The translations under genes and the position numbers were made by a program. From Escherichia coli (GTDB lineage Bacteria > Pseudomonadota > Gammaproteobacteria > Enterobacterales > Enterobacteriaceae), in the NCBI RefSeq assembly GCF_003018255.1, contig NZ_CP027440.1: 64,000 bases of DNA. The stretch is one strand, 5' to 3'. Under the pieces are notes generated by a model, which ran no database searches, was not told the origin of the DNA, and saw nothing but the letters and a program-made list of their open reading frames with translations. Shown here in pieces: positions 33,766-38,064 of the stretch; the first letter of the stretch is position 1, and each line of letters starts with the position of its first letter.

Positions 33766-35159
33766 GCGGTACCCTCACGACGCGGTGCGCGTTTGCGTGG
33801 ACGACGAGTACGGCGACGCGGTGACGGTTCTTCATCCAGTTCGTTAAGCATCCCTTTTTGGTCTGGTGGCGCGGAAACCTGGAACTCACCCCACCATTTC
33901 ACCAGACGTTGCAGTTCAGCGTTACGCTCAACTTCGGCTCGTAAGGCCAACAGGTCGTATGCCGCACGGAACTTAGGATGCTCCAGCAGTTTCCAGGCGC
34001 GTTTACCCTGACGTCGGGACATACGCAACTGCAACTGCCAGATATCGCGGGTTAACGTCGTCAGACGTTTCGGGATCGCCAGTGAACGACAGGCTTCGTC
34101 CAGCACGTCGTTCATCGCCAGCGCGAAAGCGTCGTGATAGGTCAGGCCGCTTTCCTGGGCGATCTTCTGTGCCGTCTCCAGCAGTGGGTACCAGAACATG
34201 GCGGCAAACAGGAACGCCGGGTTCACGCGCATATCGTTATGGATACGCGTATCGGTATTCTTCAGCACCTGTTCAATGATCCGCTCCATCGGGCTGTCGC
34301 CATTTTCCGTGAAGTAGCGGGTAATGGTCGGGAACAGCGGCTGGAACAGGTGATATTCACACAGCAGCTTATAGGTTTCGTAACCGTAGCCCGCTTGCAG
34401 CAGTTTCAAAGATTCTTCAAACAGACGTGCCGGTGGAATATCGTTCAGCAGGGTAGCCAGGCGAGGGATCGGTTCTGCGGTTTCAGGACTGATACGCATA
34501 CCCAATTTGGCGGCAAAACGTACCGCGCGCAGCATCCGTACCGGATCTTCACGGTAGCGCGTTTCCGGGTTACCAATCAGACGGATAACGCCGTCCTTCA
34601 GATCCTTCATGCCGCCAACGTAATCACGGACGGTAAAATCTGCCACGCTGTAATACAGGCTGTTGATAGTGAAATCGCGGCGCTGGGCGTCTTCTTCGAT
34701 GGAGCCGAAAATGTTGTCGCGCAGCAACATGCCGTTTTGCCCGCGTTGGGAGGTCGTGCGGTCGCTGACGTTACCTTCGTGATGTCCACGGAAGGTCGCA
34801 ACTTCGATAATCTCCGGGCCAAACATCACATGAGCCAGACGGAAACGGCGACCCACCAGGCGGCAGTTACGGAACAGTTTACGTACCTGTTCAGGCGTGG
34901 CGTTAGTGGTTACGTCAAAATCTTTCGGCTTTTTGCCAAGTAACAGGTCGCGCACGCCACCGCCAACCAGCCAGGCTTCGTATCCCGCTTTATTGAGCCT
35001 GTACATTACCTTCAGGGCATTTTCACTGATATCTTTGCGGGAAATAGCATGCTGCTCACGCGGGATCACCGTCACCTGTGGACGGGCGACTGCCTGTTCA
35101 GCCTCGCTTTCCTCGCGGCTTAGCACCTTGCGGCAAAAATTAGCGACTCGGGTAAAAAT
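33762..35159 (-). CDS. pcnB: poly(A) polymerase I
   Basis: translation (I->M)[42 protein letters not shown]...; no in-frame ATG at the N-terminus, start assigned to ATT at 35159-35157 following the known non-canonical AUU initiation of pcnB; 4-bp overlap with folK. Confidence 0.88.
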
Positions 35160-35218
35160 AGTACACCTCGGTAGTGTCAAACATCATTCAGGACAAAAAA
35201 ATAGCGGCTAATCATAGC

Positions 35219-36145
35219 TCAGCATGACGCATTTGAGAATGTTGAATTTACAATTGCCGACTCAGGCACGGCGGTAAGCCGCCAGTTTTTGACGGCTGAC
35301 TGAAGGATTTGCTCGACGCTGAAATCCTGCCAGTGTGCTTCTGCCTGCTGACCCAGAAATTGAAGTGCCGCGATTAGTACCGGGCGCGGATCGCCTTTCG
35401 GCAACGCAGGCGCATGATTCTGCTTGGAAAGTTTAGCGCCTTGTGTGTTAAGCGCCAGCGGTAAATGAATGTAATCTGGCACTTTCCAGCCAAAAAGCTG
35501 GTACAGCGAGATTTGCCGCACTGTCGGTTCGATCAAATCTGCCCCGCGGACAATTTCGCTCACGCCCTGGAAGTGATCATCCACCACCACCGCCAGGTTA
35601 TAGGCAAACAAACCATCACGGCGATGAATAATAAAATCTTCCCGCGCCAGTTTTTCGTTGGCGTGAATAATGCCGCGCAGCTGATCAGTAAATAGCGTGA
35701 CCGGATGCTGCTGGCGGATACGTACTGCGGCGTTGTCTGGTCCATGATGCAATTCCCGGCAATGACCGTCGTAAATACCGCCAATGCTTTGAATACGCGC
35801 GCGCGTGCAGGTGCAGTAATAACTTAGTCCTTGCTCATGTAACCAGGCGAGTGCTTCGCGATAGGCATCGTGACGTTGCGATTGCCAGAGAACGTCGCCG
35901 TCCCAGTGCAGACCGTAATGTTCCAGCTGGCGCAGGATAGTCTCTGCGGCACCGGGAACTTCACGAGGCGGGTCGATATCTTCAATGCGTACCAGCCAGC
36001 GACCTTGCCGGGCGCGAGCCTGTAAATAGCTGCCAAGCGCGGCAATCAGAGAGCCAAAATGAAGCTCGCCGGAAGGAGAGGGGGCAAAGCGGCCAATATA
36101 GTGTGTGTCTGTCATCTCGTTGAACAAAAAATAAGGCGGGAGCAT
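35219..36145 (-). CDS. gluQ: glutamyl-Q tRNA(Asp) synthetase
   Basis: [33 protein letters not shown]... (class I aaRS HIGH-like motif); formerly yadB. Confidence 0.9.
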
Positions 36146-36154
36146 TTCCCGCCT
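36120..36154 (-). terminator. dksA rho-independent terminator whose hairpin and U-tract overlap the gluQ start codon
   Basis: on the minus strand AGGCGGGAAATGCTCCCGCCT followed by TATTTTTTGTTC; the hairpin loop contains the gluQ ATG. Confidence 0.65.
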
Positions 36155-36181
36155 GTGGTAAACGTGATGGAACGGCTGTAT

Positions 36182-36637
36182 TTAGCCAGCCATTTGTTTT
36201 TCGCGAATTTCAGCCAGCGTTTTGCAGTCGATGCACAGATCGGCTGTCGGGCGCGCTTCCAGACGGCGAATACCAATTTCAACACCGCAGGATTCGCAGT
36301 AGCCGAAATCTTCGTCTTCCACTTTTTTCAGCGTCTTCTCGATCTTTTTGATCAGCTTACGCTCGCGATCGCGGTTACGCAGTTCGAGGCTGAACTCTTC
36401 TTCCTGGGCTGCACGGTCTACCGGGTCCGGGAAGTTGGCTGCTTCATCCTGCATATGTGTAACGGTGCGATCGACTTCATCCCTGAGTTGATTACGCCAT
36501 GCTTCCAGAATACGACGGAAGTGCGCCAGCTGGGCTTCATTCATATACTCTTCGCCCGGCTTCTCCTGATATGGTTCCACCCCAGCGATGGCGAGAATAC
36601 TCAGGGACGATGTTTTACGGTTTTGCCCTTCTTGCAT
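36182..36637 (-). CDS. dksA: RNA polymerase-binding transcription factor DksA
   Basis: [51 protein letters not shown]...; C4 zinc finger [25 protein letters not shown]. Confidence 0.95.
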
Positions 36638-36814
36638 GTTGCTTCTCCTTAACACGCACTATCGATCCCCATGTTCGGGGGAAAAATGAGGCCGCTATAA
36701 ATAGCAGATGCTTTTCCGGATAGCAATTATCTAAACGTAACACTTGACAACTGTGTGAGGAAAAGCGTATTTGCGCACGCGACCAGAATGTAAATTAACC
36801 AGTTACATACTTTA

Positions 36815-38064
<1,250 letters not shown>

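Follow-up and report, generated by a model that had tools for sequence, protein, structure and literature searches.

The closest described counterpart of the junction analysed here is the dksA terminator of Shigella flexneri (Caballero et al. 2012, BMC Microbiol 12:226; PMC3542578). The window, by which is meant the entire stretch of 64,000 nucleotides of Escherichia coli DNA that was analysed (contig NZ_CP027440.1), contains this very element, flanked by the same genes. In S. flexneri, dksA and gluQ-rs share a transcript. When the dksA promoters had been omitted, a lacZ fusion gave baseline activity, from which it follows that gluQ-rs lacks a promoter of its own under the conditions of that study. 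Deletion of the intergenic region led to a 10-fold increase in reporter lacZ activity, and mutations that disrupt the stem of the terminator increased downstream lacZ activity more than 2-fold. As the effect of the stem mutations was only slightly over 2-fold, against 10-fold for the deletion, another element in the spacer or the reporter junction itself may contribute. The stem-loop described in the legend to Figure 4A of the same paper (-14.7 kcal/mol by mfold) carries a candidate AUG in its loop and is followed by a second one 27 nt downstream, as is the case in the window. The authors already reported that the AUG in the loop is not the initiator and that no obvious Shine-Dalgarno (SD) sequence precedes the real start. 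Compared with the S. flexneri terminator, the window carries the E. coli version, with a few single-nucleotide differences beside the element (TAAATAC/TAATTAC and AACGAG/AAAGAG).

The dksA-gluQ junction and its hairpin

Among the genes on the minus strand of the E. coli window are sfsA, dksA, gluQ and pcnB. RefSeq annotation was transferred from the loci L001 and L002, using window = 37901 - locus coordinate. The features of the junction are the following:

36182..36637, minus strand: dksA coding sequence, 151 aa plus TAA stop codon (36184..36182) (open reading frame list, RefSeq)
36116..36181, minus strand: dksA-gluQ intergenic region of 66 nt (RefSeq annotations)
36134..36154, minus strand: terminator stem-loop AGGCGGGA/AAUGC/UCCCGCCU (fold, terminator scan, conservation, S. 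flexneri stem mutants)
36143..36145, minus strand: in-frame ATG in the loop, start of the old 308-aa model, unused (Edman sequencing, N-terminomics, conservation)
36124..36133, minus strand: terminator U-tract TATTTTTTGT (Term-seq 3' end equivalent to 36130)
36113..36115, minus strand: true initiation codon of gluQ (gluQ-rs, yadB) (Edman sequencing, N-terminomics, RefSeq, PDB)
35219..36115, minus strand: gluQ coding sequence, 298 aa plus stop codon, tRNA glutamyl-Q(34) synthetase (RefSeq, PDB 1NZJ/4A91)

The 66-nt spacer is the 3' untranslated region of dksA and, in read-through transcripts, also the leader of gluQ. A query of 501 nt over the junction was found in 5424 of 5426 complete genomes, with 100% identity to ChlosBP-23-1 and 98% to K-12. 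The 49-nt segment with the hairpin occurs as an exact 49-mer in 4984 of 5421 genomes, and in the sampled E. coli RefSeq genomes no feature is annotated over it. Relative to K-12, the spacer contains AACGAG for AAAGAG before the true gluQ ATG (window 36119, minus strand) and TAAATAC for TAATTAC past the dksA stop codon (36178..36177, minus strand). At the other end of gluQ, a promoter-like site (35239..35211) overlaps the end of the gene, and the RefSeq start of pcnB, encoding poly(A) polymerase I, is an ATT codon (35159..35157, minus strand). The non-canonical AUU start of pcnB is known to limit its translation.

The hairpin starts 27 nt past the stop codon of dksA and spans 36154..36134 of the minus strand, where the sequence reads AGGCGGGA-AAUGC-UCCCGCCU, followed by TATTTTTTGTTC at 36133..36122. 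Its stem consists of 8 bp, six of them G-C and two A-U, and closes a loop of 5 nt; directly 3' of it lies TATTTTTTG, with 7 T in 9 nt. The isolated hairpin has a folding energy of -14.5 kcal/mol (z = -4.0), a stability reached by none of 200 dinucleotide shuffles. In a scan with a terminator consensus it ranked best within 35000..37600. When sites of equal quality were defined by at least 8 pairs, at least 6 of them G-C, and at least 6 T of 8, only three were present in the 64-kb window, both strands counted, as opposed to 0.53 +/- 1.15 in shuffled sequences, and the hairpin is therefore beyond chance. Pair probabilities in the stem were 0.86-1.0 in all upstream contexts tried, which ranged from 30 to 250 nt. 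The reading frame from the ATG in the loop is open (35219..36145, 308 aa) and in frame with gluQ.

Two further folds were considered and rejected. In the window, the minimum free energy (MFE) fold of the junction contains a flanking helix between CAUCACGUU (36168..36160) and AACGAGAUG (36121..36113) that would hide the true start codon. It was rejected as a conserved feature: it needs the A-to-C substitution specific to the window, K-12 having AAAGAG at this place; its upstream flank diverges between genera; and the z-score of the 111-nt context is weak (-1.9 in the window, -1.0 in K-12). As an observation on this strain, the substitution at 36119 yields a predicted 9-bp helix with one mismatch to 36168..36160, which is strain-specific and of doubtful significance. 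The MFE fold of K-12 pairs the U-tract with AAGAGAUG by weak A-U and G-U pairs and is not significant.

A total of 80 dksA loci, one genome per species, were taken from Enterobacterales, Vibrio, Photobacterium and Shewanella, and 77 of these were analysed for spacer and SD sequence. Each of the 77 loci has a hairpin in the spacer that separates dksA from gluQ, and the MFE z-score of the spacer is below -2 in 91% of them (median -3.5). Across 27 Enterobacteriaceae, GGCGGG and CCCGCC are the only invariant columns of the spacer, while the loops vary freely. The outer stem pairs covary in this set (A-U, U-A, C-G), with 82% of cells paired versus approximately 50% after a shift of the 3' partners by 1-3 columns. 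Beyond the Enterobacteriaceae, different stable hairpins replace the sequence at the equivalent position. Those of 39 Enterobacterales outside this family (within loci L025-L072), among them Erwinia, Pantoea, Yersinia, Serratia, Photorhabdus, Xenorhabdus, Providencia and Proteus, are even more stable, with a median of -19.7 kcal/mol. In none of the 39 do the 9 nt after the hairpin include 6 or more T; these structures may be non-canonical terminators or RNA-stability hairpins and not classical intrinsic terminators.

Termination and read-through in E. coli

Using Term-seq, Adams et al. (2021; PMC7815308) located a 3' end in E. coli at MG1655 160097(-), with the sequence ...CUCCCGCCUUAUU, also given as ...CCGCCUUAUU. 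This position equals 36130 of the window, inside the U-tract. Supplementary file 1, in which each growth condition has its own sheet, lists it three times, and it was seen in at least two of the three conditions. Its count amounts to 3,097,035 in LB at OD 0.4 and to 254,767 on a later sheet, for another growth condition; in the LB OD 0.4 sheet, the former value is exceeded within the first approximately 75 rows by a single entry, a tRNA 3' end. DirectRNA-seq coverage over 800 nt up- and downstream of the site was 250/62, and 250/72 upon addition of bicyclomycin (PMC7815308). Downstream coverage is about 25% of that upstream, which is a rough ratio and not a termination efficiency. The Rho score of 1.16 is marked "No" in supplementary file 3, the coverage ratio being unaltered by bicyclomycin, and the intrinsic terminator score of 7.47 exceeds 3, the value above which termination is taken to be intrinsic (PMC7815308). 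In the same table, the 3' end is assigned to the class "internal", 15 nt within gluQ, because the old 308-aa gluQ model was used there.

Five hallmarks of Rho-independent termination are present at the junction: a GC-rich stem-loop with a U-tract directly 3' of it, as seen in the sequence and its fold, and, from the literature, 3' ends in the U-tract, independence of Rho and, in S. flexneri, a lowering of downstream expression that depends on the stem. The element is the leaky, Rho-independent terminator of dksA, as has already been published. The first-pass annotation of this DNA had described a GC-rich hairpin that has an ATG in its loop and a U-tract behind it, and such a structure is indeed present, with 8 bp and -14.5 kcal/mol. 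It had also taken the hairpin to be the dksA terminator, which is borne out by the S. flexneri reporters (PMC3542578) and the E. coli Term-seq and DirectRNA-seq data (PMC7815308). The proposed dependence of gluQ on read-through is supported by the baseline activity of the S. flexneri lacZ fusion without dksA promoters (PMC3542578), and the low ratio of GluQ to DksA set in this way by the S. flexneri experiments (PMC3542578) and the E. coli data (PMC7815308). Three checks had been suggested along with these claims, and each has been answered: 3'-end mapping for termination and read-through by the published Term-seq end at the equivalent of 36130 (PMC7815308), the RNA folding energy by the value of -14.5 kcal/mol at z = -4.0, and stem-disrupting reporter mutations by the more than 2-fold rise in downstream lacZ in S. 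flexneri (PMC3542578).

The alternative that survives best is a terminator that is conditional, in which a riboswitch-like fold or a trans-acting factor on GGCGGGA/UCCCGCC would couple gluQ to growth phase or stress. Caballero et al. raised this possibility themselves, having seen a 20-fold increase in the stationary phase of an RT-PCR product spanning the spacer, next to 1.3-fold for the dksA and gluQ amplicons (PMC3542578). The approximately 12-fold lower Term-seq count on the second sheet compared with LB at OD 0.4 would also fit, with the proviso that normalisation may differ (PMC7815308), and so would the stem core, which does not vary among 27 genera, in contrast to the divergent flanks. 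However, an invariant GC stem is expected of any terminator under purifying selection, and no alternative fold competed with the stem in upstream contexts of 30 to 250 nt. Folding and conservation revealed no antiterminator or aptamer upstream of the terminator of the kind that defines a riboswitch or attenuator, and the authors of PMC3542578 did not find a riboswitch either. A search of Rfam at E <= 10 returned nothing except a chance match to a snoRNA inside dksA. The stability of the stem in all contexts, the unconserved flank upstream of the hairpin and the negative Rfam result together argue for a constitutive terminator, and a conditional one is considered unlikely. If it were true, glutamyl-queuosine modification of tRNA-Asp would be linked to the DksA stress regulon.

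Less probable still is a hairpin that serves mainly as an RNA-stability or processing element, guarding the 3' end of the dksA mRNA from exonucleases, and not in termination. Such a role would suit the 39 other Enterobacterales in which an equally stable hairpin is never followed by at least 6 T in the next 9 nt, as well as the unusually high Term-seq count at the site. In E. coli, however, a canonical U-tract, with 7 T in 9 nt, comes directly after the hairpin. The 3' end is situated within this tract, has an intrinsic score of 7.47 and is unaffected by Rho inhibition, and removal or disruption of the hairpin boosts the activity of a downstream transcriptional fusion. The two roles are not mutually exclusive. 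Taken jointly, the readings that a factor responsive to growth phase or stress acts on the hairpin and increases read-through in stationary phase, or that the highly abundant RNA ending here includes a stable fragment of the dksA 3' end with its own function, are given a small chance, on a par with that of the conditional terminator.

Some further observations concern the abundance of this 3' end. The Term-seq count at window 36130 (3.1 million, LB OD 0.4) is comparable with that of a tRNA 3' end and roughly 10-fold the count at the rpsT terminator. The filter rule of Adams et al. for supplementary file 3 asks for a mapped transcription start at most 200 nt upstream (PMC7815308), and since 160097(-) was kept in this file, such a start should be present by that rule. 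There may be an internal transcription start inside dksA, and a short RNA of high abundance could arise from the dksA 3' end. The mapped 3' tail past the stem is short (UUAUU). Among the rows listed in the RIL-seq-based and Hfq-CLASH supplements, no sRNA from the dksA 3' end is reported; gluQ entries are absent from the rows listed of both the sRNA-prediction table (RIL-seq data) and the Hfq-CLASH table, and the dksA rows listed concern the sfsA-dksA spacer in the former and the dksA coding sequence in the latter. The Hfq-CLASH chimeras ArcZ-dksA and GcvB-dksA map to the dksA coding region (equivalent to approximately 36580..36633 and 36346..36417) and are unrelated to the terminator. In the sfsA-dksA spacer, a small hairpin at 36707..36692 is followed by a T-run (CTGCTATTTATAGCGG CCTCATTTTT, minus strand). 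The 3' end of this structure, near 36685, lies 47 nt upstream of the dksA ATG; an "orphan" Term-seq 3' end, seen in one growth condition, maps to the same place (MG1655 160652). The structure could be the terminator of sfsA or an attenuator in the dksA leader.

The start codon of gluQ and its translation

Edman sequencing of GluQ-RS produced with its native upstream region gave TDTQYIGRFAP (PMC3542578). The protein came from a T7/pET construct and not from native expression, and later N-terminomics in K-12 agrees with the result: the N-terminal peptide of gluQ identified in E. coli K-12 in 2026 is MTDTQYIGR (PMC13245402 Table S1). The latter study flags a 10-aa N-terminal truncation of UniProt P27305, which shortens the protein from 308 to 298 aa and places initiation at MG1655 160082. 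In the three RefSeq genomes that were opened, the RefSeq/PGAP start of gluQRS is likewise the second ATG, at window 36115. The PDB entries 1NZJ and 4A91 hold the 298-aa form, which begins with MTDTQ, residues 1-298 of the chain corresponding to residues 11-308 of the query. The true ATG at 36115 is located 30 bases beyond the one in the loop and 18 nt past the stem, outside the hairpin.

The comparison between species points in the same direction. Most loci have an ATG in alignment with residue 1 of the 298-aa protein; an in-frame start codon in the hairpin loop was encountered only in E. coli and E. albertii among approximately 80 species compared. The divergent Escherichia isolate AF16 has an identical stem with the loop AATTA, and several genera carry in-frame stop codons within or just past the hairpin, ahead of the conserved ATG. 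The loop ATG as the start of gluQ is an old annotation error; the codon is unused and is a lineage-specific accident of the loop sequence.

These results dispose of the part of the first-pass annotation that concerned translation. Its premise that gluQ starts at the loop ATG is refuted by Edman sequencing, N-terminomics, RefSeq, the PDB entries and the lack of conservation. As gluQ starts at 36115, downstream of the U-tract, this tract encodes no gluQ codons, let alone codons 4-7 as had been stated; even in the 308-aa frame it would correspond to the last base of codon 4 and to codons 5-8 (TAT TTT TTG TTC). The N-terminus maps to 36115, and neither the functional start nor a functional SD sequence lies within the hairpin, as an occluded start would require. 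The structured initiation region that was thought to limit translation fares no better, the true start being predicted to be as accessible as that of dksA in 69 species.

Initiation at both codons, mostly at 36115 and with a minor 308-aa proteoform made from the loop ATG when the hairpin is melted or bypassed, would be in keeping with a loop ATG that is fully unpaired in the predicted ensemble and exactly conserved within E. coli, by the 49-mer present in 4984 of 5421 genomes. Each experiment, however, returned a single N-terminus (Edman; N-terminomics); the sequence of the terminator determines the 10-residue extension, which is unconserved beyond E. coli and E. albertii, and the window has a non-synonymous change in it (FNE versus FKE in K-12). 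Such a second proteoform is therefore hardly to be expected. The least probable reading, in which gluQ starts solely at the loop ATG to give 308 aa, the hairpin both terminates dksA transcription and occludes initiation, and the U-tract is coding, can appeal to the frame that is open from 36145, to an SD-like AGG/GGGA just upstream (PMC3542578) and to UniProt P27305 still listing 308 aa (PMC13245402 Table S1), but is practically untenable in the light of the second ATG found by both Edman sequencing and N-terminomics, the 298-aa form in RefSeq and the PDB, the absence of the loop ATG from AF16 and all other hairpin-bearing genera, the in-frame stop codons that separate the hairpin from the conserved ATG in several genera, and the burial of the putative SD sequence in the stem.

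With initiation at 36115, gluQ and dksA differ clearly in their ribosome-binding sites. A strong SD sequence, AAGGAG, precedes dksA in the window. An SD-like 4-mer was present upstream of gluQ in 2 of the 77 loci and upstream of dksA in 69, and the median energy of the duplex with the anti-SD sequence was 0 for gluQ against -7.4 kcal/mol for dksA. Predicted accessibility of the initiation region over 69 species was 0.52 for gluQ and 0.49 for dksA. A structured initiation region of gluQ was rejected on this ground, its predicted accessibility equalling or exceeding that of dksA. Judged from the sequences, the conserved lack of an SD motif would explain weak translation of gluQ better than structure does, and it probably contributes to low synthesis of GluQ-RS.

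The preferred account is that of a leaky Rho-independent dksA terminator, with gluQ expressed by read-through from 36115 and the loop ATG unused, and it is regarded as highly probable. RNA polymerase coming from the dksA promoters would transcribe the 8-bp hairpin (36154..36134) and then the U-tract, in which most transcripts would end, at approximately 36130. The minority that reads through would be the sole source of gluQ mRNA, and from this RNA GluQ-RS would be translated starting at the ATG at 36115, behind a leader that is A/U-rich, devoid of an SD sequence and not unusually structured. Two attenuators in series, the leaky terminator and the weak ribosome-binding site, would thus hold GluQ-RS low relative to DksA.

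Significance and comparison with known systems

That dksA has this terminator, that gluQ depends on read-through and that its start codon was misassigned has been known since 2012 and was later confirmed by genome-wide 3'-end mapping and N-terminomics. The analysis consequently has little weight as a discovery; it is of some practical use. The 308-aa GluQ persists in UniProt and in older GenBank models, as a consequence of which the 3' end at the terminator seems "internal" to gluQ in some datasets, and the same model led the first-pass annotation to an attractive but wrong mechanism. Modest new information comes from the 77 loci: the dksA-gluQ spacer is structured throughout, across Enterobacterales, Vibrio, Photobacterium and Shewanella, the start of gluQ almost never has an SD sequence, and the U-tract is often missing in Enterobacterales outside the Enterobacteriaceae. 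The comparison of species and the conserved absence of the SD sequence extend the account of Caballero et al. (PMC3542578) and do not alter it.

Terminators between co-transcribed genes are also known from T1, upstream of dnaG in the rpsU-dnaG-rpoD operon, and from recA-recX (both cited in PMC3542578), and these are likewise intrinsic. In cases of the dnaG and recX type the distal gene is reached only via read-through, at a fixed low ratio, as is gluQ. The SD sequence of dnaG is unusual or weak, in which it resembles gluQ. As rpsU-dnaG-rpoD and recA-recX involve other genes and other sequences, the likeness is one of logic and not of homology. A second class of comparable systems comprises start codons that are sequestered in hairpins, as in translational operators and RNA thermometers, where the AUG is held in a stable stem-loop as it is in the window. 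Unlike in those systems, the AUG in the hairpin of the window is non-functional, and the true start of gluQ lies outside of it, predicted to be as accessible as that of dksA.
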